Assembly (NCBI GenBank): GCA_963750015.1
Contig: CAVVPU010000053.1
Location: 3,104-67,103 of the forward strand
Source of the DNA: an uncultured delta proteobacterium
GTDB taxonomy: Bacteria > Desulfobacterota > Syntrophorhabdia > Syntrophorhabdales > WCHB1-27
Length of the DNA: 64,000 nt
Direction: 5' to 3'
The notes beneath the pieces were generated by a model. It was not told the DNA's origin. It did not search any database and saw nothing but the letters and a program-made list of their open reading frames with translations. The translations under genes were made by a program, and so were the position numbers. Positions 740 to 18,955 of the stretch are shown here, one piece after another (the first letter of the stretch is position 1; each line of letters starts with the position of its first letter).

Positions 740-1116
740 CCGACCATCTCCTTTTGACCTCGATGAATGGCATGGTACCACTGCCGATGAGGGTATGCAA
801 GGATCAATTTTAGGAGATTTCCTCGCCTTTGGGCAAAGACTTTAGTAGAAGTGTTTTCCGCTTTTTCCTTCGGGAGGGATGGCCCCTGTGTCAGGGAGGT
901 CTTCGTGTACGGGCCTGTCATTTCCTCGGGTGAGGGCAATGATAGAGGAAGCTCTGGACGGAATCGTCGAACTCCTCGACAGGAATCGTGCGAATCGCCT
1001 TTTTGCCCCTCGGTGAAACGGGGTGTTATGGCAAATTCCCGCGGGAAGATTTATGCTGTGATTATCACTGCCGTTCTGTAGTGAATTTCAACTTCTCAAA
1101 GAAAGGAGAGGAGATC

Positions 1117-1653
1117 ATGTTCAACGAACTTGCGGAAAAAAGAAGAAGTGTAAAGGTATATTCCGACCGCCCCGTGGAGCCGGAGAAAATCGATACCATC
1201 ATGGAGGCTGCCCTCCGTTCACCCACCGGAGGGGCAAGAAGACCCTGGTCATTCGTGGTGGTCACGGACAAGAACCTGTTGAAGGACCTCTCAATAGCGA
1301 AGCCCGGAGGCGCGGCCTTTGTGAAGGATGCTCCGGTAGGCGTCGTCGTCTGCGGAGACCCGTCCGTTTCCGGTCTCTGGGTCGAGGATTGCTCCATCGT
1401 CGCAGTCACCATGCAATATGCGGCCCAGGATCTCGGGCTCGGAAGCCGCTGGGCAAATATAAAGGGAAACGAGTTCAAGGAAGGCACCACGTCAACCCAG
1501 TATATCGCGAAGCTCCTGGGACTTCCCGAAAATTTGGCAGTTCTATGCATCATCTCCATCGGCTATTCAGGAGAGGAAACGGTCCCCTACAAAAAGGAAG
1601 AGCTCCGTTTCGATAAGATCAGCTATAACCGTTACGGTCAGAAGAAATCCTAA
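1117..1653 (+). CDS. nitroreductase family protein
   Basis: ATG at 1117 follows AAAGGAGAGGAG. MFNELAEKRRSVKVYSDRPVEPEKIDTIMEAALRSPTGG... has the typical NAD(P)H nitroreductase N-terminus and length. The ORF-track start at 988 has no RBS. Confidence 0.85.
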   Translation: MFNELAEKRRSVKVYSDRPVEPEKIDTIMEAALRSPTGGARRPWSFVVVTDKNLLKDLSIAKPGGAAFVKDAPVGVVVCGDPSVSGLWVEDCSIVAVTMQYAAQDLGLGSRWANIKGNEFKEGTTSTQYIAKLLGLPENLAVLCIISIGYSGEETVPYKKEELRFDKISYNRYGQKKS

Positions 1654-1681
1654 AACCGGCCTTGGCGGACTCGATGTGGTT

Positions 1682-3435
1682 CTATGGAGGTCCGACGATG
1701 GCAAGCGCCAAAGAGGTTCGGACATCCCTATAGAGGCGATGACTATCCGAATAGGGCGAAGACCCAAAAATCGCGAGAGGCCGGTTCGCGATCAGGCACC
1801 GGTCGTCCTCACAGAGGGGCGCCTGAGCCCCGTTGATGCCCAGCTCTTTCAGGCGGACGAGACGCTTTGCCTTGTATAAGACAAAGACGGGCAGATCGGA
1901 CCTGTAGAGGCGGAGAAGCTTATCTGCGTCGAGGAAGAGGTGCTTTGCGTCGGGGTACTGAGACCCCATCTCCAATTCCCCTTTATAATCAGCAATATAG
2001 ACCCTTCTTTTTGTGTAGAACGGCAGGGTTTGGTCATAAGTGGCGTAGTCGACGACCACGGCGTTGGCCGGCCCCTTTTCCACGATTAACCGGGCAAGGT
2101 CCTTTGTGGTGTCGAACCTGTCAATGACGGGTGTGCATGCCAGGAGCACCAGGGTCACCACAACAGAAAAAACCCCGAGCCCGTAGAAAAGAGTCTAAAA
2201 CTCCTCATACAGCCGGATAGGAAAAGGATGAGCATAATGAGGGCAAGACCGGCCATTATGAGAGAGGGGGCCTTCAAGGAGCTTGCGATAACCGAAGCCT
2301 CGGGCACATCCGGCAGGTGGGCCGCAAGGATTCCGCTCCCGGCCAAGAAGGCTCCGAGGGCAAGGAGAAAGAAAAAGAGCGCGTAAGCTATTCCTTCGAT
2401 TCGGAAGCGCTGCCGGCTGCCCCACTGGTCAACGAAAAACCGTGCCAGGACGATCGAGAGGGCCGGAAAGATAGGAAGGATGTAGGGCACGAGCTTCGAG
2501 CCCGAGACGCTGAAGAAGAGAAAGACCACGCCCGACCAGATGAGAAACAGACGCGCCTCTGCGCTCCTCCACAGGCGCCCGGCAGCCCTCGGAATAAAGA
2601 AGGACCAGGGGAAGAGGCCGCCGATTATCACCGGAATAAAGTAATATATTGGGCCTGATCTGTTGTGCTCGGTAGTGAGGAAACGCGTCAGGTTCTGGTC
2701 AATGAAGAAGAATTGAAAGAACTGCGGTTCCTTAAGACAGACGAGAATGAACCAGGGGACGGCGATAACCGCAAAGAGAAGGACCGGCCTCGGTGCAGCC
2801 ATCTTCTTGAGAAAGGAGATCCTTCTCTCCATGACAAGAAAAAGTCCTATCGAAACGCCGAGAAGGACGATGCCCACGGGTCCCTTGGCGAGCACCGACA
2901 GGGCGAGAAAAGCATAAAAGAGATAAAGATAACGGCGCCGATTGCCGAGATAAAACTCATAAAAAGAAAGGAGGGAAGCAGAAAGCAAAAAAGTGAGGAG
3001 CATGTCGATGGTCACCGCCCGGCTCATGCCGAAGAAGCCGAAGGAGGAAGCGAGCATAGAGGACGAGACAAAGGCTGTTTCTTCGCTGAACCTGCGTGCT
3101 GCGAAAAGGTAAACGGCAAGCACGCAGGCGAGGGAAAAAAATGCGTTCGGAAGCCTAAAGGACCACTCGTTTGCCCCCATCAGTTTATAAGAAAGGGCGC
3201 AGGCCCAGTAAAGGAGCGGCGGCTTCTCGAAGTAGCGAACGTAATCGAGATGGGGGACTATGTAGTCGCCCTGTTCTATCATCTCCCGGGGGATCTCCGC
3301 ATACCGCCCCTCGTCCGGCTCCTTGAGGGAATAGCTTCCGAGATGATGGAAAAAAAAGAGATAAGAGAAGGCGAGAATGAGCAGCACATAGACGGCCCGC
3401 TTCTTACGGCTATTCTCCAACAGCACCTCTTCCAC
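1682..3435 (-). pseudogene. ArnT/PMT-like (GT-C fold) membrane glycosyltransferase, split into ORFs 2155..3435 and 1682..2161
   Basis: The N-terminal ORF is polytopic and carries SLKEPDEGRYAEIPREMIEQGDYIVPHLDYVRYFEKPPLLYW, the first-loop motif of ArnT/PMT_2 enzymes. A soluble C-terminal domain follows in another frame. One extra base in the A6 run at 2167-2172 fuses them (..GSGFFSVVVTLVLLAC..). Confidence 0.75.
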
Positions 3436-3825
3436 CCCCGTCCCTTGAGCTATTCCTTCGTGTCCTTCTGCCGACCAATAGCCGCTTCAACCGACCACTA
3501 AAGCGTTCCGCAGAATTGATTCCCGTTTCAACCTCTTTTCGAGCCTTTAGGAATAGGTCATATATGTCCTATAAGACCTATTCTTAGAAAGAAGAAGTGC
3601 CACGCTCAAGGAATGGCCGGGCCCGCTCAATCGTGACTTTATTTTGCAGAACGGCTTAATCATAACCCATCTACGGTTAGCAGATCATGGCCGGAGCATT
3701 ACCTTCCGCCAATAAATCCGGCAGGCCTATTCTATCATATCCGGGCCATTTTGGAAGGCCAAGAAGAGGTCCGCTCAGAGAATTTAGAAATGCTGAAAAA
3801 GACATGAGACAACAAATGCGGGTAC

Positions 3826-3947
3826 GAGGTGTGGCCGGTGACACGGGTCGCCGTATCTTTAAAAGCCCGCGGCTCCGGCCCTCATAGGATGCACATACCA
3901 GCACCAATTGAAGGACCGCCGCAGGCGCGCAGTGCCCCTTCCCGAGA
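3826..3947 (-). repeat. Family-B structured repeat, short variant (copy B1, reverse orientation)
   Basis: Reverse complement aligns with the 5' and 3' parts of the long B copies (..TTCAATTGGTGCTGGTATGTGCATCCTATGAGGGCCGGAGCCGCGGGCTTTTAAAGATACGGCGACCCGTGTCACCGGCCACACCTCG). It lacks the ~150-nt internal stem-loop. Confidence 0.8.
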
Positions 3948-3970
3948 GGGTGGGGTGAGGGGGGCGGTTG

Positions 3971-4268
3971 ATAACAGAGGCGGCCCGAAGAGGCCGCCCA
4001 AACCATTCCCTCCCTTCCCCTCCCTTTTTTCAGCGCACAGGCATTTGACCCCCTTGGCAATCCCATAAGCGTATGGCACCCCTTCCTCTCGCACATATTG
4101 CGCAGCGACCGTTAACCAGCGTTAGCGGAGCTTGAGCGGTCCCGAAGGGATGATGTGTCATGCTCGAACTGCTTTTAGCTCGGACGCCACCGTGCACATC
4201 AAGCTCAAGCGGAGCTTACGATGGTCGGGAGCGGAGCCTTTGTGCGAGAGGAAGGGGTGCCATACGCG
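3971..4268 (+). repeat. Family-A structured repeat, copy A1 (forward)
   Basis: GC hairpin GGCGGCCCGAAGAGGCCGCC (3979-3998), polypyrimidine tract, CAGCGCACAGGCATT, then a perfect 27-bp stem: 4068-4094 GCGTATGGCACCCCTTCCTCTCGCACA pairs with 4241-4267 TGTGCGAGAGGAAGGGGTGCCATACGC. Three further copies are in the window. Confidence 0.85.
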
Positions 4269-4297
4269 TCGATTCCCCATACCACCCCCATTCAAAC

Positions 4298-4412
4298 GCC
4301 TTTGCTTTGCTTTGCCTTTGCCTTTGCTTTGCCTTTGCCTTTGCTTTGCCTTTGCCTTTGCTTTGCCTTTGCCTTTGCTTTGCCTTTGCTTTGCCTTTGC
4401 CTGTGCCCTGCC
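4298..4412 (+). repeat. tandem repeat, 17-nt unit GCCTTTGCCTTTGCTTT, about 6-7 units
   Basis: Direct reading of 4298-4412. Shorter or degenerate versions follow or precede every A and most B copies. Confidence 0.9.
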
Positions 4413-4497
4413 CTTTTCTTTCCCCTTTCATTTCTCCCCTTGCCGCATTATATAGTGAACGGGAAGAATGTCCCTTTTGGGGCGGCAGGAGGCCGGA

Positions 4498-5631
4498 ATG
4501 TTCGGACGACCGATAAAACTTTTCAAGCTTTTCGGTTTCACCGTGCGCGCCGATGCGAGTTGGCTCGTCATCGCATTCCTGATCGTCTGGACCCTCGCCG
4601 CCGGGCTCTTTCCCTCCTACTACAAAGGCCTGCCCAAGGCCACCTACTGGTGGATGGGGGTCGGCGGGGCGCTCGGACTATTCGGCTCAGTCGTCTTCCA
4701 CGAATTCTGGCACTCCTATGTAGCCCGGCGCCACGGCCTTCCTATCAGCGGCATCACCCTCTTCATCTTCGGGGGTGTCTCGGAGATGACCGAAGAGCCG
4801 TCGAGCCCTGGGGTGGAGTTCTTCATGGCCCTGGCAGGCCCCGTTTCAAGCTTCGTCCTGGCAGGTATCTTCTACCTGGCCGCCCTCGGAATGCGGGCGA
4901 CCACTCCTCTTCCGCTCCACGCGGTCATCGGCTATCTTGCTCACATCAATGTACTGCTTGGCTTCTTCAACCTTCTGCCCGCCTTCCCCCTTGATGGCGG
5001 CCGCGTGCTCAGGTCCATCTTGTGGCACTGGAAGGAAAATCTGCGGTGGGCAACGAAGGTCGCTTCCCGGATAGGTGCAGCCTTCGGCGGCGCCATGATA
5101 CTTCTCGGCATAGTCACCTTCGTCACCGGCAACCTGGTCGGCGGCATCTGGTGGTTCCTCATAGGCATGTTCCTGAGAAACGCTTCCATGATGTCCTATC
5201 GCCAGATCCTGATCCGCAGAGCCCTCGAAGGAGAGCACGTCGGCCGTTTTATGAAGGCCGATCTCGTGACCGTCGCGCCTTCCCTTACCCTCTCGAAACT
5301 CATGGATAACTACATTTACAAATACCCTTACAAGATGTTCCCCGTGGTGGACAAAGGGAATCTCGCCGGGGTGGTCACCATTAATCAACTCAAGGAAGTC
5401 CCCAGGGAAGAATGGAATACGCGCACAGTGAAAGATATCGCCGAGACGTGCACTGAAGGCAACACTATCGACCCGGATGCGGATGCGACCAAGGCCTTGG
5501 AGAAGATGAGCAGGACGGGGACCGGCCGCCTCATGGTCGTGGACCACGGCAGGCTGGTCGGCATCCTTGTCCTGCGCGACCTCCTGCGATTCTTGTCGAA
5601 TAAGCTCGATTTCGAAGCCGCTGAGGTATAA
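4498..5631 (+). CDS. M50 site-2-protease family metalloprotease with C-terminal CBS pair
   Basis: HEFWHSYVARRHG (HExxH), a multi-TM N-terminal half, and two CBS-like repeats at the C-terminus. Start moved to ATG 4498, with AGGAGG 5 nt upstream. Confidence 0.85.
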   Translation: MFGRPIKLFKLFGFTVRADASWLVIAFLIVWTLAAGLFPSYYKGLPKATYWWMGVGGALGLFGSVVFHEFWHSYVARRHGLPISGITLFIFGGVSEMTEEPSSPGVEFFMALAGPVSSFVLAGIFYLAALGMRATTPLPLHAVIGYLAHINVLLGFFNLLPAFPLDGGRVLRSILWHWKENLRWATKVASRIGAAFGGAMILLGIVTFVTGNLVGGIWWFLIGMFLRNASMMSYRQILIRRALEGEHVGRFMKADLVTVAPSLTLSKLMDNYIYKYPYKMFPVVDKGNLAGVVTINQLKEVPREEWNTRTVKDIAETCTEGNTIDPDADATKALEKMSRTGTGRLMVVDHGRLVGILVLRDLLRFLSNKLDFEAAEV

Positions 5632-5857
5632 ACGGATCGACAACCCTCCATTGCGATTCACACAAGGGTGAATTACTTTTTCTATATGATTCCGGTGCCT
5701 TTCTTACCTCTGGTTACGACATAGGTACGTGGAAGGACGACGTCATTTTACGCCTCCTTCTCCCAGAATAAACGCTGTGGGTGCGGTGGGCTAAACGCCC
5801 GAAGGGCCTGTAATAGGACCCATAGGTCGCCTAGGACCAATAAGGCCGCTTCAGGCC

Positions 5858-7141
5858 TCAGGCTTTTGCCCGTGTCACCAGTCCCTGTATGATGTCGTTG
5901 TAATGGAGCACGCCGATCAGCCGGTCCTGAACATCGACCACCGGTATCATCCGGAAGTGGTACTTGGCGAAGAGCTCCTCCAGGTCGTCTCTTGTCGTCT
6001 CTTCTTCGGCGACGACCACAGAGGTGACCATCAGGTCACAAAGGCGCGTCCCGTCGGGCGCGAGCACCAGGTCGCGCAGATCGATGACGCCGACGAGCAC
6101 CTTGTCTTCGACAACGAAGACATAGGCGACCGCATCATGGTCATAGCCCCCGGTTCTGATACGGTCCAGGGCCTCCCCGACAGTCGCTTCCTTCGGGAAA
6201 ATCACGCAATCGGCAGACATAAGCTCCCGGGCCGTAATCTCCTTTTCCGAAATGATGCTTCTGATGCGCTTCGCCTCCGACTCCGGAAGGAGATCGAGGA
6301 ACTTCTGGGAATCTTCGTGAGGCAGAACCGAGAAGAGGTCTGCCAGCTGGGGTATGGAGAGCTCCGAAAGAATATTCTGAGCCTTCTCTTTCCTCAGGTT
6401 GGCGATAAGCTGCCGCTTGGCCCTCGGCTCCGCGTGGGCCAGTGTCTCCGCCGCCTTCTCTGAATCGAGGGCGGCAAAGAAGGCCTCCTGTTCTTTACCG
6501 GAGAGCATTTCGAGCACGTCGGCCAGGTCTTCACCGGGCAAATCGAGGGCGCCCTCCTTCTTCACCGAAAGGGAGACGCTGTCCGTGGTCACCGCATCCT
6601 CTACGGAAAAGGGCTGGACGTATTTCCAGGAGATAAGGCGGTCCCTGATCCACCTCACGCTCCCCAGCCTCCACTTTCGCAAGAAACCGTTGAAGGAGGT
6701 GTCCACGTGGACGATGATCATTCGCCTCCTCGAATAGAGGAGATGGACGTCGTTCACCACCTCGACTCTGCGACCGTCCGTGTCGAGTATGGTCTTCCCC
6801 ATCAAATGCTGATTAAGGAGCATCCACCCGGGCTGGTCCACGAAGGGCGGGTAAGTCTCTCCATGCTCGGGGGCAAGCACGAAGATCACATCAGGCTGAA
6901 TATCTATGACCCTGTCCCACGGGATGAACTCGGTCGGCTTTCCCCATCCGTGTTCGAGGTAGATGCCGGCCGCCTCGGGATGGGGCTCGGTGAGCTGGAA
7001 GACGAGATCAGAGAGCTTACCGAGACGGTTGTCGACCTTGCCCACACAGACGGGGCGTTTGAGAAGCTCCGAGAACCAGAAGAACTGAAAATCCCGGCTC
7101 ACGGTTTCCGCAGGCTTGTAATCCGGATTAGTGACGGCCAT
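5858..7141 (-). CDS. soluble PRC-barrel / MgtE_N / CBS-pair protein (no transporter domain)
   Basis: MgtE N-domain-like helical region (LSGKEQEAFFAALDSEKAAETLAHAEP..LPHEDSQKFLDLLPESEAKRI) followed by a CBS pair, with no TM segments. Start at ATG 7141 has GGAGG 6 nt upstream. Confidence 0.7.
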   Translation of the reverse strand: MAVTNPDYKPAETVSRDFQFFWFSELLKRPVCVGKVDNRLGKLSDLVFQLTEPHPEAAGIYLEHGWGKPTEFIPWDRVIDIQPDVIFVLAPEHGETYPPFVDQPGWMLLNQHLMGKTILDTDGRRVEVVNDVHLLYSRRRMIIVHVDTSFNGFLRKWRLGSVRWIRDRLISWKYVQPFSVEDAVTTDSVSLSVKKEGALDLPGEDLADVLEMLSGKEQEAFFAALDSEKAAETLAHAEPRAKRQLIANLRKEKAQNILSELSIPQLADLFSVLPHEDSQKFLDLLPESEAKRIRSIISEKEITARELMSADCVIFPKEATVGEALDRIRTGGYDHDAVAYVFVVEDKVLVGVIDLRDLVLAPDGTRLCDLMVTSVVVAEEETTRDDLEELFAKYHFRMIPVVDVQDRLIGVLHYNDIIQGLVTRAKA

Positions 7142-7223
7142 GAAATCCTCCGGTCTATTATACATAATGAACCCCTGATTAGGAAGCACCTTGCCATTTG
7201 GTGTATACTAATGGACCTTTCAG

Positions 7224-8165
7224 GTGAACGAAATGGACATAAAGCAAAAAGCCTCCATCTTCGCCGTGGTCTGCGCCCTGGGTCTCGCCGCGAGCAAGTT
7301 CTTTGTCGGGCTCATGTCGGGTTCCATGGCGGTTGTTGCTTCGGGCCTCGACAGCCTCCTCGATGTCTTCATGTCGGCCATGAACTTCCTTGCCATCAGA
7401 ACGGCCGCCCAGCCTGCCGACGAAGAGCATAAGTACGGCCACGGAAAGGCCGAGGCGATTGCCGGCTCCGGTGAGGCCATAATCGTCGTGCTCACGGGCG
7501 GCTTTATCGTTTACAAGGCGATCGAGGAATTCGTAAGCGCAAAGAAGATCAACTACTCGGGAGCAGACCTTGCCGTCATGGGCCTTTCCCTGGTCTTCAG
7601 CTTCGTCATCTCCCATGTCCTCAAAACCGTAGGCCGGAAGACCGATTCGGCCGCCCTCAAGGCTGATGCCCTTCACTATACGAGCGACCTTTATTCCAAC
7701 TCGGCAGCCATCGTCGCCATCATCCTCACCTATCTCACGGGAAAGCCTTTCTTCGACATACTCTTCGCCGTCATCGCGGGCCTTATCATCATGTTCCCCG
7801 CCTTTAACATACTGAAGGAAGCCGTTTCCGGACTCATGGACCAGAGCATTCCGCCCTCAGTGGAAAAGGAGATTGCATCGATCATAGACGACATGCCTTT
7901 CCCTTATGCGGGCTACCACAAGCTCCGGACCCGTTTTTCGGGGAGCAAGAAATATATCGACTTCCATCTGCTCATCTGCCGGAAGCTCCAGATAGACGAA
8001 GCCCATGCTCTCGCTCATGAAATCGAGGACAGGATAACCGCCAGGTTCGCCACGGTCGACGCGGTAATCCACCTCGAGCCGTGCGAATACAAGTGCAGCC
8101 TCGACGAGGCCACGTGCATGGTGATCAGAATGCGGAGAGACAAACTATCCGCCCATAAACAGTAA
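7224..8165 (+). CDS. cation diffusion facilitator (CDF) family transporter
   Basis: Six predicted TM segments plus a cytoplasmic C-domain. Shows the CDF-like motifs SGSMAVVASGLDSLLD and HYTSDLYSN. Start could be GTG 7224 or ATG 7233. Confidence 0.85.
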   Translation: MNEMDIKQKASIFAVVCALGLAASKFFVGLMSGSMAVVASGLDSLLDVFMSAMNFLAIRTAAQPADEEHKYGHGKAEAIAGSGEAIIVVLTGGFIVYKAIEEFVSAKKINYSGADLAVMGLSLVFSFVISHVLKTVGRKTDSAALKADALHYTSDLYSNSAAIVAIILTYLTGKPFFDILFAVIAGLIIMFPAFNILKEAVSGLMDQSIPPSVEKEIASIIDDMPFPYAGYHKLRTRFSGSKKYIDFHLLICRKLQIDEAHALAHEIEDRITARFATVDAVIHLEPCEYKCSLDEATCMVIRMRRDKLSAHKQ

Positions 8166-8327
8166 TCGGCAATCGGCCGATGGCCTCGGCACTTTTCCAC
8201 ATAGCTGTTATTCGGGCCCGGAATCGGGTAATATATAGGCGTAGTGGGAAGACCGGGCGGAGAGGTCTCATCGATGTACGCCGGTGCACGCCGCCCTTAC
8301 CACGCCAATCAAGGAGCAGACAGATAC

Positions 8328-8951
8328 GTGAAGACAAAAGAGCATGTGAAGACAAAGAGCAAAACCAGACAGTATGTGGAGTCGATCGCCATCGCCCTCG
8401 TCCTCGCCCTTTTCGTGAGAAGCTTCATGGTCGAGGCTTTCACTATCCCCTCGGGCTCTATGGAGCCCACCCTCCTCGTGGGAGACTACCTCATCGCGAG
8501 CAGACTGAGCTACGTGGTGAAGGTTCCCTTCACGGACACAGTTCTGCTCCGTCTCGGTGAGCCGCGCCGGGGCGACGTGGTGATCTTCCGGTATCCGGTC
8601 GATCCGAGCAAGGATTTTGTGAAGAGGATCATCGGTAAGGAAGGCGATACGGTGCAGGTCCGGGATAAAGTCGTCTACGTCAACGGCAAACGCATAGAGG
8701 ACAGCCACGCCCACATCATGCCCGATTACCACTGGGAAGGCGATAACTTCGGCCCCGTCACGGTGCCGAAAGACTCCTACTTCGTCATGGGCGATAACAG
8801 GGACAACTCAAGCGACAGCAGGGTCTGGGGTTTCGTCAAGACCTCCGACCTCGTGGGCAAAGCGGAGATCATATACTTCTCGAAGGACAGCAGCCCCGAC
8901 AGCCTGCTCGGTTATGTAAGGTGGGAGAGACTCGGCCACCGGGTGAGGTAG
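8328..8951 (+). CDS. lepB: signal peptidase I
   Basis: Has SGSMEPTL (Ser box), KRIIG (Lys box) and GDNRDNSSDSR. Start is uncertain: GTG 8328 lies 11 nt after AAGGAG, and the ORF track begins at 8244. Confidence 0.85.
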   Translation: MKTKEHVKTKSKTRQYVESIAIALVLALFVRSFMVEAFTIPSGSMEPTLLVGDYLIASRLSYVVKVPFTDTVLLRLGEPRRGDVVIFRYPVDPSKDFVKRIIGKEGDTVQVRDKVVYVNGKRIEDSHAHIMPDYHWEGDNFGPVTVPKDSYFVMGDNRDNSSDSRVWGFVKTSDLVGKAEIIYFSKDSSPDSLLGYVRWERLGHRVR

Positions 8952-8965
8952 TGAGAGGAACAGAG

Positions 8966-9030
8966 CACAGGCAAGGCACAAGCAAAGGCAAGGCAAAGGC
9001 ACAAGCAAAGGCAAAGGCATTAGGAAGGGG
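8966..9030 (-). repeat. tandem GCAAAGG-type repeat (reverse complement of the 17-nt unit), about 4 degenerate units
   Basis: CACAGGCAAGGCACAAGCAAAGGCAAGGCAAAGGCACAAGCAAAGGCAAAGGCA, directly flanking A2. Confidence 0.8.
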
Positions 9031-9049
9031 AAAGTCATGCCCGTGGGAC

Positions 9050-9340
9050 GCGTATGGCACCCATTCCTCTCGCACAAAGGCTCCGCTCCCGACCATCGTA
9101 AGGCTCCGGTTCGCTTGATGTGCGCGGTGGCGCACGAGCAAAGAAGTCCGAGCACGCACATCATCCCTTCGGGACCGCTCTCCTTAAGCCAACGGTGGTT
9201 AACGGTCGCTCCGCAATATGTGCGGGAGGAACGGGTGCCATACGCTTATGGGATTACCAGGGAGGAATGCCTGTGCGCTGGAGGGGAAGAAAGGAAGGGA
9301 GGGGGTGTCAGGGCGGCCTCTTCGGGCCGCCGGACTTATC
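9050..9340 (-). repeat. Family-A structured repeat, copy A2 (reverse)
   Basis: Reverse complement aligns along its full length with A1. The stem arms at 9050-9076 and 9223-9249 pair at 25/27 positions. The terminal hairpin GGCGGCCTCTTCGGGCCGCC is at 9312-9331. Confidence 0.85.
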
Positions 9341-9394
9341 CAGTAGGTGCCGGTGTGCAACCCTTTCTTGAGAGCCGGAACCTGGAAAGATCGA

Positions 9395-9520
9395 CGGACG
9401 AGGGACGAGAAAAGACATCCCGAAACTCGAATCGCGAATCGCGAAAGTTAACGACAAAAGAGCGACCGACCCCCTCACCCTACCCTCTCCCCTCACCGAG
9501 GGCGAGGGAAAAAAGAGCAT
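9395..9520 (+). repeat. S module: repeat found upstream of two B copies
   Basis: ..GAAACTCGAATCGCGAATCGCGAAAGTTAAC..AAAAGAGCGACCGACCCCCTCACCCTACCCTCTCCCCTCA..GGCGAGGG recurs at 54700-54835. Confidence 0.75.
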
Positions 9521-9529
9521 GTTGCCCTT

Positions 9530-9777
9530 GGCGGCCTCAAGGGACGCCGCCCTTATTCAATTGGTGTTGGTGTGTACATCCTATGAGGGCCGGAGCCGCG
9601 GACCAAAGGATACGGCGACCCGTGTCATCGGGCGGTCGCATGAAGGGGATGCGTCATAGGTGGATGAGATTTGAGCCTTATCGGCCGCAGGCGTACTTTC
9701 GTACGCCGGAGGGCATACGGCGAAAAGATCGCCGCATAGGGCGTATTCCCTTCATGCGACCGGCCACACCTCGTGCC
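9530..9777 (+). repeat. Family-B structured repeat, long variant (copy B2, forward)
   Basis: Has the 5' hairpin GGCGGCC..GCCGCC, then CTTATTCAATTGGTG..CCTATGAGGGCCGGAGCCGCGG. A long stem pairs GGCGGTCGCATGAAGGGGATGCG with CGTATTCCCTTCATGCGACCGGCC. An inner hairpin GGCGTAC-TTTC-GTACGCC is present. Confidence 0.85.
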
Positions 9778-10042
9778 TTCATATGCCCTTGCCTCTGTAT
9801 TTTGCCTCTCGCCCCTTTGTCCCTTCGCCCATAGAGCCCCTTCGCCTCGTCCTGGACGAATTATAACGGGTTGATACCCGAGCTATATATGCACCCGAGC
9901 AGGATCAGCCCCGCATTGACGGCCTTTGTTCTTGCATTGTGCCCTGTTATCGTGTTAATCCCTATTATCGAGATATCGGTATTCCAAGCACCCAAGCCCG
10001 ATCGCCGATCCTCTTCACTTTTCCTCATACTCGGGAGGCTTT

Positions 10043-11281
10043 TTGAATAAGATAAAGGGCTCGCCTTTCTTCAGCAGGATCAGGAAGATCGATCCTACCA
10101 TTCTGTCGCTGACTATCGGTCATGGATTCACCGATTGGTATCTGGGCACCTTAACCGTCATTATCCCCTATCTCGCCATTGACATGGGGCTCAACTACAG
10201 CCAGGTGGGGTTCCTCATGGGCTGGAACTCCTTTTCCAGCTTCTTCGTGAACCTGCCGGGCGGCTTCATCGTCGACACCATAGGCCAAACCAGGCTACTT
10301 CTGGGACTGGCCCTGCTCCTTACCGGTCTGCCCTATATGTGCCTCGCCTTCGCCGTCAACTACCTGACGGCTATGATCGTGGTGACCTTCACGGGGATAG
10401 GTGCGAACCTGTGGCACCCGGCAGCTTTCTCTTTCCTCGCCAAACGCTATCCGGACCGGAAAGGCTTCGCCATGGCCGTCCATATCCTCGGAGGCAACCT
10501 CGGGACCACCCTGGCCCCTCTGGCCCTCGGCTTTGCCCTCACCTACACTGCATGGCGGCATGTGCTGGTCCTCAACTTTCTGCCCGGTCTCATCATGACA
10601 ATCGTCTTGTGGAAGCTCCTCGCCAAGACGGGGGACGTCATGGCCAAAGCCAAGGGGAAGCAGCTTTCGGTCGCCCAATATTGGACAGCCGCAAAAACCA
10701 TGTTCCGGAACAGGCATATCCTCCTTCTCTGTGTGCTGGCCGGTATGCGAACCATGACGCAGTCGGGGCTCTTCACGTTTCTTCCCCTCTACCTGGTCCA
10801 CGACCTGAAATACTCCCCTGCCCTTCTCGGAATCTATCTCACCGTTATCCGGGGAGTCGGCACTTTGGCCGCTCCCGTAATGGGAAAGATCTCGGACTCG
10901 AGGGGAAGGCGTCCGGTGCTTACCATGGGACTTACGGTGACGAGCCTGCTTCTGGTGGCCCTGGTCGTGCTTAAGCTCCATTACCTGTTCATCGCCGTTC
11001 TGGCGATTCTCTGTTTCTTCCTCTTTTCCTTATCGCCGGTCATGCTTGCGTGGATGACGGACCTGGCGCCGAAAAACATGGAAGGCACGACAGTGAGCGC
11101 CCTCTTCGGTATCCAATCGCTCTTTGCGGGGCTTGCGCCTCCGGCGTGCGGCCTCATTGCCGACCGCTACGGACTCCTCTACACCTTCTATTTCCTGGCA
11201 GCCACGGTCTTCGCGGCGAACTTCCTGGTCTATCTGATACCGGAAAAGGCGGTTGAGGAGGAAGCTGCCTTGGCAAGTTAA
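10043..11281 (+). CDS. MFS transporter
   Basis: About 12 hydrophobic segments over 412 aa. TTG start lies 4 nt after GGGAGG. No substrate can be inferred. Confidence 0.8.
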   Translation: MNKIKGSPFFSRIRKIDPTILSLTIGHGFTDWYLGTLTVIIPYLAIDMGLNYSQVGFLMGWNSFSSFFVNLPGGFIVDTIGQTRLLLGLALLLTGLPYMCLAFAVNYLTAMIVVTFTGIGANLWHPAAFSFLAKRYPDRKGFAMAVHILGGNLGTTLAPLALGFALTYTAWRHVLVLNFLPGLIMTIVLWKLLAKTGDVMAKAKGKQLSVAQYWTAAKTMFRNRHILLLCVLAGMRTMTQSGLFTFLPLYLVHDLKYSPALLGIYLTVIRGVGTLAAPVMGKISDSRGRRPVLTMGLTVTSLLLVALVVLKLHYLFIAVLAILCFFLFSLSPVMLAWMTDLAPKNMEGTTVSALFGIQSLFAGLAPPACGLIADRYGLLYTFYFLAATVFAANFLVYLIPEKAVEEEAALAS

Positions 11282-11354
11282 CCCTCCGTCACATCGGGTT
11301 TGCTCTTGAAGTCCGGTCGGTTTCTTGTTGATAGGTAAGAGGGAGGGAAAAATG

Positions 11355-11428
<74 letters not shown>

Positions 11429-11634
11429 ATCTTCTATGGCATAGAGTATACACAAAACAGCGAAAAAACTGTAGTGGATTCTGGACTCTCCCGCATAAAT
11501 CATGGGGCATGAAAGGGTTTACGGGGGTCTTTACGCGATCGATGCCGGATGTCCACCGGGGCTCGCGCCCGTGTAAAATCAGTTGACACCGGAGGGCAAC
11601 GCTGTTACCTTTAGAAAAACTTATGGAGGGGAGT

Positions 11635-11850
11635 ATGTCGTTGGATGGCAGGGTCGCAAGGGTGACGGAAGTCATCGCAGGGTCGCCGAAGAGCTTTGAT
11701 GACGCAGTCATGGTGGGTTTCAAAAGGGCCACAAAGACGCTCAGGGGCATCACCGGCCTTAAGGTCAAGGACTGGCGGGCAAAGGTGGAAGACGGCAAGA
11801 TCATCGAGTACAGGGTAACTCTGGAAGTGCTCTTCGTCCTGGAGAGCTAG
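11635..11850 (+). CDS. dodecin family flavin-binding protein
   Basis: About 71 aa. VARVTEVIAGSPKSFDDAVMVGFKRATKTLRGITGLKVKDWRAKVEDGKIIEYRVTLEV matches the dodecin pattern. ATG 11635 follows GGAGGGG. Confidence 0.8.
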   Translation: MSLDGRVARVTEVIAGSPKSFDDAVMVGFKRATKTLRGITGLKVKDWRAKVEDGKIIEYRVTLEVLFVLES

Positions 11851-12782
11851 AGCCGGAGGCCGGCATTATCCGGGCAGCCGCGCAGATGCCAGGCGATAAG
11901 CCTGAAGTAGTAGTTGTACTTCCGCCTCATCGACCTATCCAACAAAAGAAAAGGAAGTAGAGTGACGGGGAGCAGGAAAAGGAGCGCCTTCCCTGCCCTG
12001 ATTGCCACAAAAGTCCGGTAGTAGATCCTCGACCGATACTTTTTGAGAAACTTATAGAGGGATATGGAATACTCTATCCTCCCTGCGACCCAGGACTTTC
12101 GTATCGTCTTACCCTGAAGGTGTATGAGGCGGGCGCCGGGAAAAAAGACCACACCAAAGCCCTTCCTGCCCGCCCGGAGACAGAAATCGGTCTCTTCGAG
12201 ATAGAAAAAGAACCTCTCGTCGAAGCCGTCGAGGCTATCCAGGACCGATCTACGCACGAGCATTGCCGCACCGATCAGGGATTCCACCTGAATTGGATCG
12301 GAAACACCCCTTCCCTTCGTCCTGAACCCGCCGGGAAGAAGCCTTTCGAGCAAGGAACGGGGAAGCAGCTCGAGGGCGAGGGAGGGCGTCAGGGCAAAGG
12401 AACGCTGGGGCCGCAGGTCCTCGTAGACGAGCTGGGGCCCGACTATGCCTACCCTATCCTCCCGGGCCACGTAGTCGAGCATCTTGGACAACTCTCCCGG
12501 AATAAGGCGGGTGTCCGAGTTAAGAAGAAGAACGAATTCGCCTGTCGAGCGCCGGTATCCCAGATTCACTGCCGCCGCGAAACCCCTGTTCTCCTCGTTT
12601 CTGACGAGGTGAACCCCCGGGAACCTCGGGGCCAGCATAGCGTCCGTCCCGTCCGTCGACCCGTTGTCCACGACGACGATCTCCGTATCATGCTTTGAAA
12701 GCGACGAGTCGGCCTCGATGGACGCCAGAAGCGATTGAAGAAGGTCCCTGTTGTTCCGGGCTATAATGATGATAGAAAGCAC
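11847..12782 (-). CDS. family 2 glycosyltransferase
   Basis: Has SIIIIARNN.., VVDNGSTDGT and LLLNSDT. Start trimmed to GTG 12782 because the longer ORF overlaps the upstream aminotransferase by ~100 nt. Confidence 0.8.
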   Translation of the reverse strand: MLSIIIIARNNRDLLQSLLASIEADSSLSKHDTEIVVVDNGSTDGTDAMLAPRFPGVHLVRNEENRGFAAAVNLGYRRSTGEFVLLLNSDTRLIPGELSKMLDYVAREDRVGIVGPQLVYEDLRPQRSFALTPSLALELLPRSLLERLLPGGFRTKGRGVSDPIQVESLIGAAMLVRRSVLDSLDGFDERFFFYLEETDFCLRAGRKGFGVVFFPGARLIHLQGKTIRKSWVAGRIEYSISLYKFLKKYRSRIYYRTFVAIRAGKALLFLLPVTLLPFLLLDRSMRRKYNYYFRLIAWHLRGCPDNAGLRL

Positions 12783-12837
12783 GCACTTATAGTAGCTTAA
12801 GGAGCTTAAGGAGCGCAAGAGCCGGGCCGGCTTAAGT

Positions 12838-13935
12838 TCAGACCATACTGTTGAGAATCTCGATGCCTTTGACGATCGCTTCCTCGCCCGCAGCGAAGGA
12901 TATGCGAAAATGGGTCGCCTTCCTGGAAAAGACACTCCCCGGTATGATGAAGAGCCGATTTTTGATGGCCCGCTCTACGAAAGCGTCACCATCCCCACCC
13001 GGTGCCTCGGGAAAGGCATAATAGGCTCCCAAGGGCTTTGCAAGACGGAACTTGTCTTTGAGACCGTCATAGATAAGGTCCCTTTTCCCGACGAAAGTCT
13101 CAATGAGGGGCTTCGTGTCAAAATCGAGGGCAAGGAGGGCGGCCTTCTGGGCGATCGAATTGACGCTCGAGAAGACATACTGCTGCATGGTGACCATGCT
13201 GTCGATAATCTCCTTGGGGCCCGCCACGTACCCCAGACGCCACCCCGTCATGCCCCAATTCTTGGAAAATCCTCCGAAGGTCAGGGTGTTCTCGTAGAGC
13301 TGCCCCAGGTAAGTCCGGGGCTCCTGTGGATCGAAGACGAAGTGGTCGTAGATATCGTCGGAGAAGACGAGGACGTTCTTCTCCCTTGCCACACGCGCCA
13401 CCATGGCAAGCTCCTCCCCCGAATTGACGGCTCCGGTGGGATTGTTGGGGCTGTTGATGAGGATGGCCCTCGTCCTCTCGGAAAAGGCTGCCCTCAGATC
13501 GTCTTCACGCAGGGTGAAATCGGGATAGGTATCGAAGAAGACCGGCTTGCCGCCGAGAAGAAGGATCTGATACTCGTAGAGGACGAAGTAGGGGTCCGGG
13601 ATTATTATCTCGTCACCGGGGTTGAGAGTGACCAAAAGAGAGAGAAGGAGACCCCCCGTGACCCCCGGCGTCACGATCACGTCTTCGCACATGATCCCTT
13701 TGTTATGGAGATAATGGAGTATTTTTTCGCGAAGCTCGGGGAGCCCGCCCGAAGGGGTGTACTTATTGAAGCCCTTTCTTATCCACCTAATGCCTTCTTC
13801 CTTGATCGACTCGGGTATGTCGAAATCGGGCTCGCCCAGGCTCAGATCGACGGGGTCTTTCACGGTCCTCGCCAGATCGAATATCTTCCTCACCCCGGAC
13901 GGCCGTATGTTTTGCACTCTATCGGAAAGCCACAT
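12838..13935 (-). CDS. class I/II PLP-dependent aminotransferase
   Basis: Has ILINSPNNPTGAV and FGGFSKNWGMTGWRLGY (SxSK lysine motif). Confidence 0.85.
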   Translation of the reverse strand: MWLSDRVQNIRPSGVRKIFDLARTVKDPVDLSLGEPDFDIPESIKEEGIRWIRKGFNKYTPSGGLPELREKILHYLHNKGIMCEDVIVTPGVTGGLLLSLLVTLNPGDEIIIPDPYFVLYEYQILLLGGKPVFFDTYPDFTLREDDLRAAFSERTRAILINSPNNPTGAVNSGEELAMVARVAREKNVLVFSDDIYDHFVFDPQEPRTYLGQLYENTLTFGGFSKNWGMTGWRLGYVAGPKEIIDSMVTMQQYVFSSVNSIAQKAALLALDFDTKPLIETFVGKRDLIYDGLKDKFRLAKPLGAYYAFPEAPGGDGDAFVERAIKNRLFIIPGSVFSRKATHFRISFAAGEEAIVKGIEILNSMV

Positions 13936-14047
13936 AACTCCTCACTCAATGTCTCGCGTAGCGTTTAGCCTAATCCGTATAAGCAGCAGAATCCAGAAAA
14001 AAATGTAGACAGGGAAAATTGGTGGCTGCCCTGCGCTTCTTCTTTTC

Positions 14048-14554
14048 TCATGCACCTTTTCTTTCAAAAAGGTCCATGTTTCTGTTGATGTACTGAATGT
14101 GTTTGTCGAAGTGTTGGGTATAGATCGACAGTATCATCCTAAGATTGATTCGCCCGAAATCCGGGTGCTGAATGCCATAAGTCGTCATCTCCTCATCGGT
14201 CATGGTGGAGACGTGCCGAAGCGTTATGCTTCTCAGAAGCCTTATGATCTCCAAGGAGTCATCGATATCTTGGGAAGAATACCCGAGCAGGCTGTTGCTT
14301 GCGTCAACCTCTCCACCTCCGAGCCTGAGGTCTACCCCGGGCTCGGCGACCGCGTTTCTATACCGGATGAAGGCCCTGATCTCCACATCCATCAAATGGG
14401 CCAAATGCTCCCTTATAGACCACGCCTCTTGGAGGTCGGGGACAAAATCGACTGCGCCCGGGGGCAAGGCCTCTATCATTCCTTTGAGCCTTGGCCAGTC
14501 ACTCTCGTATTTTGCCAAGAGATGTTTTCTGTCGGTTAATTCAAAAAAATCCAT
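14048..14554 (-). CDS. DinB-family (DinB_2-like) protein
   Basis: Reads MDFFELTDRKHLLAKYESDWPRL..IREHLAHLMDVE... Size and His pattern fit DinB-like helical bundles. Confidence 0.7.
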   Translation of the reverse strand: MDFFELTDRKHLLAKYESDWPRLKGMIEALPPGAVDFVPDLQEAWSIREHLAHLMDVEIRAFIRYRNAVAEPGVDLRLGGGEVDASNSLLGYSSQDIDDSLEIIRLLRSITLRHVSTMTDEEMTTYGIQHPDFGRINLRMILSIYTQHFDKHIQYINRNMDLFERKGA

Positions 14555-14659
14555 CGTTGAACCTCCGACCGCGCAGGTCTGTTCTTGCCGCATAACGTGG
14601 AGTTCGCCCGCGCCGCGTCCTTCTCATCCTGCTGGGCGGAAGGCATTGTTCGCTCTAAT

Positions 14660-14887
14660 TCACAGTAGTTTTTCAAATTCGTCAACACCCAGCCTTGCCT
14701 GCTTCAGGATGTGCGAAAGCGTGGAACGCTTCAGTGGCCGATGGGCCGGAAGCGTTAGCTTGAGGACTTCGGCAGCAGTTCGTTTCTGAAGGCGCACGTG
14801 GCTTCCTTTCTGCCTTACCACAACCCATCCATCTCGCTGTAATGCTCGAATAATCTGGTCGTACGGCAGGCTCGGGACTTTGGTCAT
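14660..14887 (-). CDS. hicA: HicA-family mRNA interferase toxin
   Basis: 75 aa. ..IIRALQRDGWVVVRQKGSHVRLQK.. is the HicA/YcfA signature. Overlaps the upstream antitoxin stop by 4 nt. Confidence 0.85.
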   Translation of the reverse strand: MTKVPSLPYDQIIRALQRDGWVVVRQKGSHVRLQKRTAAEVLKLTLPAHRPLKRSTLSHILKQARLGVDEFEKLL

Positions 14888-15087
14888 ACCGCCAATTCGA
14901 CTGTCTCGGCATTCGGTGCGAGAATTTGGTCGTCCTCGACGGGTTCAAGATAAAGTTCGATGGCTTCCCGTATGTTTTTCAAAGCATCTTCTTTGGTCTC
15001 CCCTTCGCTGATGCAGCCGGGCAGCGAAGGAGCGATAGCCGTGTAGCCGCCCTCCTCGCTCGGTTCCAATACGATCCTTAGCCTCAT
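14884..15087 (-). CDS. hicB: HicB-family antitoxin (UPF0150)
   Basis: Reads MRLRIVLEPSEEGGYTAIAPSLPGCISEGETKEDALKNIREAIELYLE. ATG 15087 lies 5 nt after GAGGTG. Confidence 0.85.
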   Translation of the reverse strand: MRLRIVLEPSEEGGYTAIAPSLPGCISEGETKEDALKNIREAIELYLEPVEDDQILAPNAETVELAV

Positions 15088-15206
15088 AATTTCACCTCGT
15101 CCCAAAAGTATACACCATTCCGAAAAACAGGCGTAGTTTCTTGGGATGTTGCTTCCAACGTTTCTCGGCTGATTTGATGTCCCTTACCTTTTTTCCCTTT
15201 GCCTTT

Positions 15207-15276
15207 GGCGGCCTCAAAGGGACGCCGCTCTTATTCAATTGTTGCTGGTGTGTGTATCCTATGAAGGCCGGAGCCG
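15207..15276 (+). repeat. Family-B repeat, 5' fragment (copy B3)
   Basis: GGCGGCCTCAAAGGGACGCCGCTCTTATTCAATTGTTGCTGGTGTGTGTATCCTATGAAGGCCGGAGCCGG, then it diverges into another hairpin-rich sequence. Confidence 0.75.
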
Positions 15277-15454
15277 GAAAGGACAGAGGGGAGCGGAGAG
15301 ATCGTCCCTTCGGGACTGGGGAGCGGGGAGAGAAAGAGCTTTTTTGCTCCCCAGCGAGTAGAACGAGCGGTCTCCCATCTCCCATCTCCCCTCCCCTTTG
15401 TGCTCACCCCTCCCCTCTTGATCGACCCTGCCCCATACTCGGCAAATTCACCGC

Positions 15455-16822
15455 CTAGGGCTTGGGGAACTTCTCCAGGTCCTTCATTGCCCTCTGAATA
15501 TCCTCATCCTCCAGGACCGCATCTTCGAGCTTTCCCGACAGGAAAGCGTCATAGGCGGCCAGGTCGATGAGACCGTGGCCGCTCCAGTTCATGAGAATCA
15601 CCCGCTCCTTGCCCTCTTCTTTGGCTCGCTTCGCTTCCTCGATCACGCAGGCAATGGCGTGGTTGGTCTCCGGCGCAGGCACAAAACCCTCGGTCCGGGC
15701 AAAGGTGAGGCCCGCGGCAAAGGTCTGGGTCTGGGCATAGGCCCTCGCCTCGATCAGCCCCTCGGAGAATACCTTGCTTACCAGGGGCGCCATACCGTGG
15801 TACCTCAGGCCTCCCGCGTGAATGGGAGCGGGCATGAAGGAATGGCCGAGGGAATGCATGGGCATGAGGGGTGTCTTCCCTGCGGTATCCCCGAAATCAT
15901 AGACAAAGGGACCCTTGGTCAGGGTGGGGCAGGAGGCAGGCTCGCACGCGACCACCCGCACGTCCTTGCCGTTCATCTTATCCCTTAGGAAGGGGAATGT
16001 GAGGCCCGCAAAATTGCTGCCGCCGCCGACGCAGGCGATCACTACGTCGGGGTACTCTCCCGTCTTCTCCATCTGTTGCCGGGCCTCGAGGCCGATCACG
16101 GTCTGATGCATGAGCACGTGGTTGAGCACGCTTCCCAGGGAGTACTTGGTGTCCCGGGAACTCATCGCGTCCTCGACCGCCTCGCTGATGGCAATGCCCA
16201 GCGAGCCCGTGTGTTCGGGGTTCCGGGCGAGGAATCCCCTGCCCACCGCTGTATCGGGACTCGGGCTGGCCACACAACTCGCGCCCCATGTCTCCATGAG
16301 CATCTTCCTGTAAGGCTTTTGATTGTAGCTCACCCGCACCATATAGACCTTCAGCTCAAGACCGAACTGGTTGCAGGCAAAGGCGAGAGCACACCCCCAC
16401 TGGCCTGCCCCGGTTTCCGTGGTGATCCTCTTCACGCCGGCCATCTTGTTGTAATAGGCCTGAGGCAGAGCGGTGTTCGGCTTGTGGCTGCCTGCGGGGC
16501 TCACCCCCTCGTGCTTGAAGTAGATGTGGGCCGGTGTGCCGAGGAATTTCTCCAGCCGCAAAGCGCGGTAGAGGGGCGTCGGCCTCCAGATGAGCAATCT
16601 TTCAAGGACGGCCTCGGGTATGTCCACCCACCGTTCGGCGCTCATCTCCTGCTCCAAAAGACTCATAGGGAAGAAGCTCAAATCATCGGGGCTCGCGGGC
16701 TGACCCGTGACAGGGTTGAGCGGCGGAAGCAGCGGCGTGCCCAGATCGGCCTGGATGTTGTACCATTGTCTGGGCATCTCCTTTTCGTCGAGCAGTATTT
16801 TCGTGTTCATCTCTTCCTCCAT
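15455..16822 (-). CDS. trpB2: TrpB2-type tryptophan synthase beta-like PLP enzyme
   Basis: 455 aa with the long N-terminal extension typical of TrpB2. PLP lysine motif GSHKPNTA is present. ATG 16810 (after GGAGG) is an alternative start. No trpA or other trp genes are nearby. Confidence 0.9.
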
Positions 16823-16845
16823 CCGTGAAATTTACCCGTGGTCGA

Positions 16846-16935
16846 ACAAAAAGGGCCATGAATCTTACAGACTCATGGCCCACAAAAAAAAGGCCATGAG
16901 CAGTTTGAAACCGCACATGGCCCCATGATAGCGGT
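16846..16935 (-). promoter_or_regulatory. two tandem terminator-like hairpins in the trpB2 leader (candidate attenuator)
   Basis: On the minus strand: GGCCATG..CATGGCC followed by T8, then GGGCCATGA..TCATGGCCC followed by T5. The inner arms (CTCATGGCC / GGGCCATGAG) are mutually complementary. Confidence 0.4.
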
Positions 16936-17220
16936 CTCACCGTTTAAAGATGCACCACCACCATGCGCAGACAAGTGTCGTATTTGGTCTTCCGGGCATA
17001 CTTTCATGTAACACGGCTAAAGCGGGCTGTCAAGAGAATTTTAGCAAACACCTTGCGAATACAGGCTTAATCTGTTACAATGTATTGATTTTAGGCCGGT
17101 TCGTCGGAGCTTCCGAAAGCCTGGTTCGAACTCCTTGACCAAGTAGAAAAGAAAAAGCTTGTTGCCGGATAGGAGGTCGGATACAATGGGAATGGAGCGC
17201 CCTGGGCGAAAGAACGAAGC

Positions 17221-17249
17221 TTGACAATGGCCGAAAAAATGCTATATTT
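17221..17249 (+). promoter_or_regulatory. sigma70-like promoter (TTGACA-16-TGcTATATT)
   Basis: TTGACA at 17221-17226 and TATATT at 17243-17248, with a TG extended -10. It sits in an AT-richer spacer upstream of rpoD. Confidence 0.4.
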
Positions 17250-17282
17250 AGAAGAAGTCTGCAGGTTTTTAGCCTATGCAGT

Positions 17283-17319
17283 AAAAAAATGCCCTCTGAA
17301 AAGCAAGGGCATTTTTTTA
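17283..17319 (+). terminator. intrinsic-terminator-like hairpin 18 nt upstream of the rpoD start codon
   Basis: A7-ATGCCCT-CTGAAAAGCA-AGGGCAT-T7 (stem 17289-17295 / 17306-17312). Confidence 0.45.
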
Positions 17320-17336
17320 CACTCGGAGAAAAGTAG

Positions 17337-18854: not shown

Positions 18855-18916
18855 GGGTGAAACACTGCAAAGAATCCGACCGCCTGGGTTTTTCGGCTGG
18901 CAGGCGTGTCCGTCAG

Positions 18917-18948: not shown

Positions 18949-18955
18949 CGTCCTC

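Follow-up and report, generated by a model that had tools for sequence, protein, structure and literature searches.

The BOX elements of Streptococcus pneumoniae follow the layout boxA-(boxB)n-boxC, in which the tandem unit is an internal 45-nt box, the Correia elements of Neisseria carry 26-bp terminal inverted repeats and a TA duplication, and the attC sites of integrons are direct repeats, each placed after a promoterless open reading frame (ORF), beside intI and attI. The pneumococcal BOX, RUP and SPRITE repeats are lineage-restricted, highly structured and slow-moving and can influence co-transcribed genes (Croucher et al. 2011, PMC3049150), and the repetitive extragenic palindromic sequences (REPs) of ~20-40 nt and REPINs of ~70-110 nt lie mostly at gene 3' ends and are linked to a RAYT gene (Bertels & Rainey 2011, PMC3116915). 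The present analysis concerns two repeats, A and B, in 64,000 nucleotides of DNA from an uncultured delta proteobacterium of the Syntrophorhabdales (GenBank assembly GCA_963750015.1, contig CAVVPU010000053.1, positions 3,104 to 67,103 of the forward strand; this whole stretch is referred to as the window), which a preliminary description had taken for the borders of a recurrent cassette site or the ends of a mobile unit. It is suggested, as a probable though far from certain reading, that A forms the left arm and B the right arm of a single interspersed repeat, modular and non-coding, which is confined to one narrow lineage of uncultured Syntrophorhabdales. On this reading the element is a new, lineage-restricted mosaic of the BOX, bacterial interspersed mosaic element (BIME) and MITE (miniature inverted-repeat transposable element) kind and is probably non-autonomous. 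The window was compared with L016 (ENA contig_33800, collinear with window 1-19486 at ~95-98% identity), with two near-identical strains obtained by exact look-up, L018 (99.96% identity) and L022 (98.5%), with seven short A/B contigs of the Joint Genome Institute metagenome Ga0181520, mostly broken inside repeats (L005 and L008 are among its loci), and with the distant relatives L009, L011, L012 and L017 (~75% nucleotide identity, ~59 kb summed), of which L017 was found via CysS/MoeA homologues (those relatives being <=82% identical) and is syntenic with the window only over 26525-31063.

Self-comparison of the window and alignment of the copies bear out A and B as genuine repeat families and, with them, the hairpin-core-tandem repeat layout described earlier for the arms. 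Each arm joins a GC hairpin module (h) to a long hairpin core (~210 nt in A, ~165 nt in B) and ends in a (GCCTTTG)n-like microsatellite (T), with the hairpin always at the same end in both families. A is present in the window as four copies with a pairwise identity of 77-92%, B as four full copies, one centrally deleted copy (B1) and one fragment (B3), and the repeated DNA of the window is confined almost wholly to a few intergenic stretches. The h module, a GGCGGCC-loop-GGCCGCC hairpin with a further ~45-55 nt (CTTATYCAAYYGGTGCYGGTGTG.GCA.CC...TGARGGCCGG), is common to A and B, and its stem (GGCGGCC/GGCCGCC) is invariant in every copy. It ends the minus-strand A arm at the inner side and begins the plus-strand B arm, in the same orientation both times, so that the ~75-nt h homologues of an A(-)/B(+) pair are direct and not inverted repeats. 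The T arrays are pyrimidine-rich (6.5 units of a 17-nt period in A1), and Tandem Repeats Finder placed arrays of this type nowhere in the window except at A and B copies. A full element reads T-Acore-h-centre-h-Bcore-T over ~600-900 bp; half elements are solo A arms (A3, A4 and the copy in L007) or solo B arms (B5, B6 and B7), some of them with a further module, S. The modules h, S, Y, A core, B core and T are recombined in several layouts, as a mosaic of alternating orientation. No ORF is conserved in the DNA between the arms (X) at loci 1 and 2, the two adjacent pairs described below, and a candidate small ORF, beginning with the conserved ATGAAGG in the B head, was rejected, as 8-, 10- and 11-nt indels between copies break its frame.

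Compared with the described systems, the A/B element resembles BOX in being modular and non-coding with a variable count of a tandem sub-unit and extensive predicted secondary structure, and furthermore in its intergenic position, from which neighbouring genes could be affected, its narrow lineage and its slow turnover between strains. The likeness is one of architecture only. Host phylum and GC content differ, and the element departs from BOX in its two dissimilar long hairpin cores (165-210 nt), its head module with a GC hairpin, its full length of 600-900 bp and its tandem part, which is a 5-6-nt microsatellite at the outer end. With REP, BIME and REPIN sequences it shares a mosaic of a GC-rich palindromic unit and other motifs with units in opposed orientation, and its strand-specific hairpins would suit a single-strand DNA mechanism as for those families; however, the h hairpin is ~20 nt but the repeated unit 300-450 nt, and no short unit, 3'-end preference or RAYT was seen here. 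Like Correia MITEs, A and B are small, probably non-autonomous repeats near promoters that would form long hairpins if transcribed and can change promoter context, but no terminal inverted repeats, target duplication or parent insertion sequence was found for them. As with integron attC sites, imperfect palindromes fold on one strand and DNA is bracketed by repeated structured sites; unlike in an integron, the arms are inverted, the short X stretches are without an ORF, and no integrase was found in the domain scan, which covered 50 ORFs of the 64-kb window. The same scan returned no recombinase or transposase domain (0 domains), nor one of the Y1/HUH type, in agreement with the preliminary description, which had reported the window free of recombinases. 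The element differs from an inverton in that no invertase was found and that loci 1 and 2 have the same orientation in L016. Finally, the B core structure is backed by covariation as in a cis-regulatory RNA, but A and B are without the fixed place in a 5' untranslated region, before functionally related genes conserved across taxa, that marks a riboswitch or leader.

Within the window, the arms face each other hairpin-inward at two loci, and for these the earlier placement (3826-4412 and 8966-9830) and the sizes given for X were roughly right. At locus 1 (3819-4425) the minus-strand B1 arm (3819-3935), its outer end toward the PMT start, retains the B head and the core flanks with the central hairpin deleted (CACCGGCC joined to ACACC) and is without a T array; the centre (3936-3965) is a minus-strand CCCTCACCCCACCCTCTC segment resembling the right part of S; and the plus-strand A1 arm (3966-4425), made up of h (3966-3998), a CT-rich stretch (3999-4030), the core palindrome (4055-4268) and T (4298-4425), points toward the M50/CBS protease gene. 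At locus 2 (8961-9830) the minus-strand A2 arm (8961-9398) comprises T (8961-9038), which adjoins the LepB stop codon, the core (9047-9260), an AG-rich stretch (9266-9311), the hairpin (9312-9333) and a B-head-like extension (9334-9398), and is followed on the plus strand by the S module (9399-9522), an optional 5' extension of B whose right part and the centre of the other composites are homologous, and by the B2 arm (9523-9830; h 9523-9600, core 9603-9776, degenerate T 9777-9830), directed toward the MFS transporter gene. S and B2 align contiguously, as a single block, with 54707-55136, where S precedes the solo arm B7; the remainder of the locus 2 X is an A extension (up to 9408) that recurs in L008; and the segment of the locus 1 centre, over 3913-3965, recurs between A and B/Y in locus 2 of L016 and in L005. 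The X of both loci is hence made of family modules (S and the shared centre) and not of foreign DNA. A hairpin-inward A/B pair is also found at two unrelated loci of Ga0181520 (L005 and L008), and in a four-way alignment the composites have one homologous centre with indels. Given this A/centre/B layout at four unrelated loci, shared descent of one two-armed unit is indicated, and not chance; the hairpin-inward appearance results from each arm pointing outward at its flanking gene. G-tract runs (GGGGAGAGGGTAGGGTGAGGGGG) in S (~9478-9500, minus strand) and in the locus 1 centre (3945-3968, plus strand) fit a G-quadruplex motif.

Four hairpin-inward loci had been proposed, and the other two do not appear to be pairs. 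The supposed fourth B copy is a Y module (20520-20630, minus strand), which consists of a B-head-like fragment (TATGAAGGGGAGGCTCCGCGGGC) and an 18-nt tandem repeat, without core or T array and without a match to the B-core covariance model; the B5 arm opposite (21298-21545, plus strand) is a diverged full copy (147.8 bits with that model), and the X of ~660 bp between them, at what was termed locus 3, holds one low-GC gene (GC 0.49). A3 (32217-32569, minus strand) has its T end toward an Exo_endo_phos gene (31222-31950, minus strand), and B6 (37572-37871, plus strand) is followed by a TTACAT-17-TATAAT promoter-like site and an ORF of 94 aa (37981-38265). These two lie 5 kb apart, nothing matching S or Y and nothing family-related was found at the edges of the 5-kb X, and they give the impression of separate solo arms, each with its own neighbouring gene. 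A 115-nt repeat inside this X was rejected as a pair of element ends, being in fact two histidine-kinase C-termini. For the 11 elements, the series of orientations (- + - + + - + - + + +) gives P ~0.11 (35/330, by combinatorics carried out for this analysis).

Comparison of close strains shows every comparable site to be occupied in both the window and L016, with contents that differ. The B arm of locus 1 is centre-deleted in the window (B1) and full length in L016 (6046-6301), and that of locus 2 is full length in the window (B2) and centre-deleted in L016; the locus 2 centre is the A extension with S in the window, and in L016 an S-fragment with Y, inserted in the loop of B's hairpin; and the B3 site (15199-15276, plus strand), a 5' fragment with only the B head in the window, holds a full B in L016 (16216-16465). 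The breakpoints of the L016 locus 2 centre lie at the hairpin of A and within that of B. The preliminary description had proposed to check whether X is present or absent among strains with breakpoints at the hairpins. At this locus the centre does differ in that way, but the replacing segments are all modules of other copies, and homologous exchange at the most conserved segments therefore explains the centre swaps. Likewise, A2 is 85% identical to its L016 orthologue within flanks that are 96% identical, and the inner 135 columns of the two resemble copies from other loci most closely, which together point to conversion between copies. T length also differs between orthologues, A1 having ~110 nt vs ~63 nt in L016, and the T arrays of A4 and L003 differing in length by one 17-nt period. 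In L018 and L022 both locus 3 and B3 are unchanged, so that the 660-bp X, presented earlier as a possible insert, does not vary at 98.5% or 99.96% identity. Around locus 1, some differences concern neighbouring DNA: in L016 (here ~95% identical) a minus-strand nitroreductase gene (6787-7513) replaces the M50/CBS protease gene (window 4413-5842) exactly from the A1 T end, the PMT and M50 genes being retained in distant relatives. A ~40-nt motif, ATAGGTCnTATnnGTCCTATAAGACCTATTCTT, occurs twice in the window, at 3541-3585 and 31072-31116, and a 169-bp stretch with the first copy (indel 3489-3657) is missing in L016.

The distribution of the element is narrow. The only further copies of A and B came from Ga0181520, from ENA assemblies and from Logan contigs of close relatives. 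Rfam gave no A/B match, either for the whole window at the gathering threshold or for 8900-10050 at E<=10; an exact-pattern scan of GTDB representative genomes gave no match for A and three for B that have no further similarity and were treated as chance; viral contigs gave no match for either pattern; and a literature search on Syntrophorhabdus repeats found nothing relevant. In the distant relatives L009, L011, L012 and L017, no A/B was found by BLAST and no hidden copy by the B-core covariance model. The PMT(-)/M50(+) gene pair is kept in L009 and L011, where its spacer measures 233 and 210 bp vs 1032 bp in the window. The boxes CCTATTCTAACACATC on the PMT side and GCATTATATATAG on the M50 side are recognisable in all three, and in the window ~700 bp of B1-centre-A1 sits between them. 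At this site the A/B unit is an insertion relative to the distant relatives, and to that extent the earlier reading is supported.

The T end of the element also tends to lie toward a gene start, as it does in 11 of 15 loci. For A these are A1 (M50), A3 (Exo_endo_phos) and A4 (TatD) in the window and L002 (EamA), L005 (B12-binding protein) and L006 (PTPS) elsewhere, and for B they are B1 (PMT), B2 (MFS), B6 (the 94-aa ORF), B7 (orf55218) and L008 (nitroreductase); the exceptions are A2 (LepB 3' end), B3, B5 and an L016 element at 1877-2292. In several cases, with promoters read by eye, the T array directly adjoins a -35-like hexamer. The T array of the solo arm A4 (43049-43476, plus strand) adjoins a TTGATT-18-TATAAA site that immediately precedes the TatD ATG (43492), an arrangement kept in the orthologous locus L003 of Ga0181520 (89% identity), and the putative promoter stretch TTGATT-18-TATAAA-TTGCC-ATG is 100% conserved in L003 and L001. 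Further putative promoters are TTGACT-17-AAAAAT-TGAGT-ATG after the S + B7 arm (54707-55184, with B7 at 54843-55184, plus strand), which fills the divergent ClpB/orf55218 spacer, and TTGACA-17-TAGATT-ATTGC-ATG in L006. Given promoter-like sites after T, the genes seem to keep their own promoters, the element sitting upstream of the -35; inside h or the cores, inspection by eye gave no convincing match to a sigma-54 or sigma-70 promoter. The interval from the -10-like box to the ATG is exactly 5 nt at TatD (43455-43494), orf55218 (55185-55220) and PTPS (L006, ~850-900), a spacing which, read from the sequence, suggests that mRNAs in this organism may be leaderless.

The predicted structures of both arms are strong and strand-specific. 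A1 folds at -140.4 kcal/mol (z -6.2 vs shuffled sequence) and B2 at -133.8 kcal/mol (z -4.6). The B core has 52 pairs, with 94.5% of cells paired over seven copies, and compensatory change in 17 pairs vs 5.3±1.8 in shuffles, none of 500 shuffles reaching 17; sliding the partners lowers pairing to 33-45%, and three U-G wobbles do not vary. Pairing in the A core reaches 98.6%, the stem of its side hairpin (GGUCC-loop-GGAU) is kept with a variable loop, and A4 and L003 have an extra apical hairpin. Read from h to T, the strand folds more stably than its complement, by ~20 kcal/mol in all six B copies compared, with 5-9 G-U pairs vs 1-5, and by 4-12 kcal/mol in nine of nine A copies. As the structures are kept on one strand, they would act as RNA or as single-stranded DNA and not as a cruciform. 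Nevertheless, three copies (B1, L016 locus 2 and L008) cleanly lack the B core hairpin, which indicates that this hairpin is dispensable.

Several observations weigh against a single interspersed element that entered this lineage. First, no locus comparable at 95-99.96% identity is filled in one close strain and vacant in another; all empty sites are those of the relatives at ~75% identity, whose spacers are barely alignable, and L009 has a T-end-like TTTGCCTGCGGCCTTTTCTTTT at the matching spot, so that loss in the relatives is possible instead of gain. Second, no clear marks of transposition were seen: no target-site duplication was seen at locus 1 relative to L009 and L011, where the spacers are too diverged to fix the junctions, and no partner transposase was found among the scanned ORFs. 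The outer ends are inverted (CAAAGGC)n...(GCCTTTG)n arrays, to which extent the non-autonomous unit with inverted ends envisaged earlier was recovered, but there are no terminal inverted repeats other than these low-complexity T arrays, and a single arm has h at one end and T at the other. Third, the gene-start orientation bias is borderline (binomial P ~0.06, calculated here), covariation in the A core is weak because most of its pairs never vary, and the strand-specific structure exceeds the needs of a purely selfish DNA element.

The alternative that survives best, though unlikely, is that the cores are functional structured RNAs, regulatory leaders or small RNAs kept by the host, with their spread secondary to function. 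The strong strand-specific covariation and the invariant U-G wobbles of B, the A side hairpin whose stem is kept while its loop varies, the extra apical hairpin of A4 and L003, and the co-orientation of the arms with downstream genes at 11 of the 15 loci are all consistent with such a role. However, the genes that lie downstream are unrelated to one another (a protease, TatD, transporters, PTPS and a nitroreductase), the promoter-like -35/-10 sites lie downstream of T, so that the cores are not obviously within those mRNAs, and no convincing internal promoter was seen. Moreover, a B core hairpin that can be deleted, the absence of the elements from the ~75%-identity relatives and the lack of an Rfam match are not what such RNAs would lead one to expect.

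It is also improbable that A and B are two separate MITE-like elements that insert independently beside the same type of target, a GC-rich terminator hairpin, their pairs reflecting a shared target preference. Solo A and solo B arms both exist and the hairpin is at the same end in both families, as this scenario would have it, but the hairpin stem is invariant and the ~45 nt beyond it are shared, which makes h part of the element and not a native target, and the A-B centre is homologous at the four unrelated loci. A bolder proposal, which should be regarded as a faint possibility, is a new mobile element moving via a single-stranded (RNA or single-stranded DNA) hairpin intermediate and homing upstream of -35 boxes, with h as the exchange point at which the centre, and occasionally genes, would be swapped; this would amount to a promoter-proximal cassette-shuffling repeat without a linked recombinase.

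That no transposition took place, and that a native regulatory spacer (for example the ClpB upstream region with S) was copied by ectopic recombination or segmental duplication, is highly unlikely. S does accompany B at two loci, conversion between copies is evident and in L016 the replacement of the M50 gene begins exactly at the A1 T end; yet there are at least 10 copies in 64 kb beside unrelated genes, the family boundaries are sharp, and recombination alone requires homology already present at every new site. The least credible of the explanations weighed is the cassette or attachment site, in which h would be a site-specific recombination site and DNA of any size would integrate between the arms, flanked by direct h repeats like attL/attR. 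In its favour, the h modules flanking X are indeed direct repeats, the locus 2 centre is not the same in the window and in L016, its breakpoints falling at the A hairpin and within the B hairpin, and the locus 3 X contains its one low-GC gene. Against this, the exchanged segments all recur as modules elsewhere in the family (S at B7; the S-fragment and Y in L005, L008 and L016), an empty form with a single h was seen in none of the loci compared, the scanned ORFs include no integrase, the locus 3 X is unchanged in two other strains, the copy facing B5 is not a full arm, and the edges of the 5-kb X hold nothing family-related. The recurrent cassette site proposed in the preliminary description is accordingly not supported for the two adjacent pairs, whose X is the element's own centre (S, S-fragment or Y). 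An integron, an inverton, a retron, a 6S-like RNA and type III antitoxin repeats were each rejected, being without the defining partner gene or layout.

The genes of the window form an ordinary chromosomal set, with PMT, the M50/CBS protease, MgtE, a CDF transporter, LepB, the MFS transporter and RpoD, followed by NrdDG, CysS, MoeA, TatD, SerS, SecDF and ClpB, and metagenome-assembled genomes of Syntrophorhabdales give the best named matches of LepB, CysS and other window proteins. Two cyclic di-GMP riboswitch aptamers were identified, one of the c-di-GMP-I class (51.6 bits; 25568-25667, plus strand) ahead of a DUF642 gene and one of the c-di-GMP-I-GGC class (62.3 bits; 57523-57623, plus strand) ahead of an ORF at 57656-57997. 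Between B5 and nrdG/nrdD is an orphan Cas6-like ORF (21564-22253, minus strand), which matches Pfam PF10040 (E 8e-10) and falls below the NCBIfam cut-off; the window yielded no CRISPR array, and any link of this ORF to the hairpin repeats would be pure speculation. A perfect 32-nt palindrome, AAAGAAGGCGTCCTGATCAGGACGCCTTCTTT, at 20141-20172 between convergent genes is probably a two-way terminator. SecD is split over two ORFs (50102-51699), HicB and HicA domains are joined in a single ORF (61785-62225), and the 5-kb region between A3 and B6 contains two histidine-kinase C-terminal remnants (33410-36604); these may be either long-read frameshift noise or real pseudogenes.

Returning to A and B as the arms of one interspersed element, it is suggested that the element entered the intergenic DNA of this lineage and settled just upstream of promoters with its T ends toward genes, and that its copies have later been remodelled rather than moved. 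Remodelling has included exchange or conversion between copies where the hairpins are conserved, the loss of the long hairpin from the core and slippage of the T array. Once transcribed, the core hairpins would probably function as RNA, or else they would do so as single-stranded DNA; the h hairpin is probably a terminator or insulator, and movement would most likely depend on an enzyme encoded elsewhere.

For annotation, the module grammar would let repeats be masked and spurious ORFs such as 9037-9834 be avoided, and knowledge of it would keep A/B pairs from being read as island borders. The elements coincide with strain-to-strain differences, including one gene replacement at a T end, and short-read contigs break there. 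With ~10 copies in 64 kb of an uncultured syntroph, they fill whole promoter-upstream spacers, and such large strand-specific hairpins, together with length-variable pyrimidine arrays set against -35 boxes, may tune or insulate many unrelated promoters.

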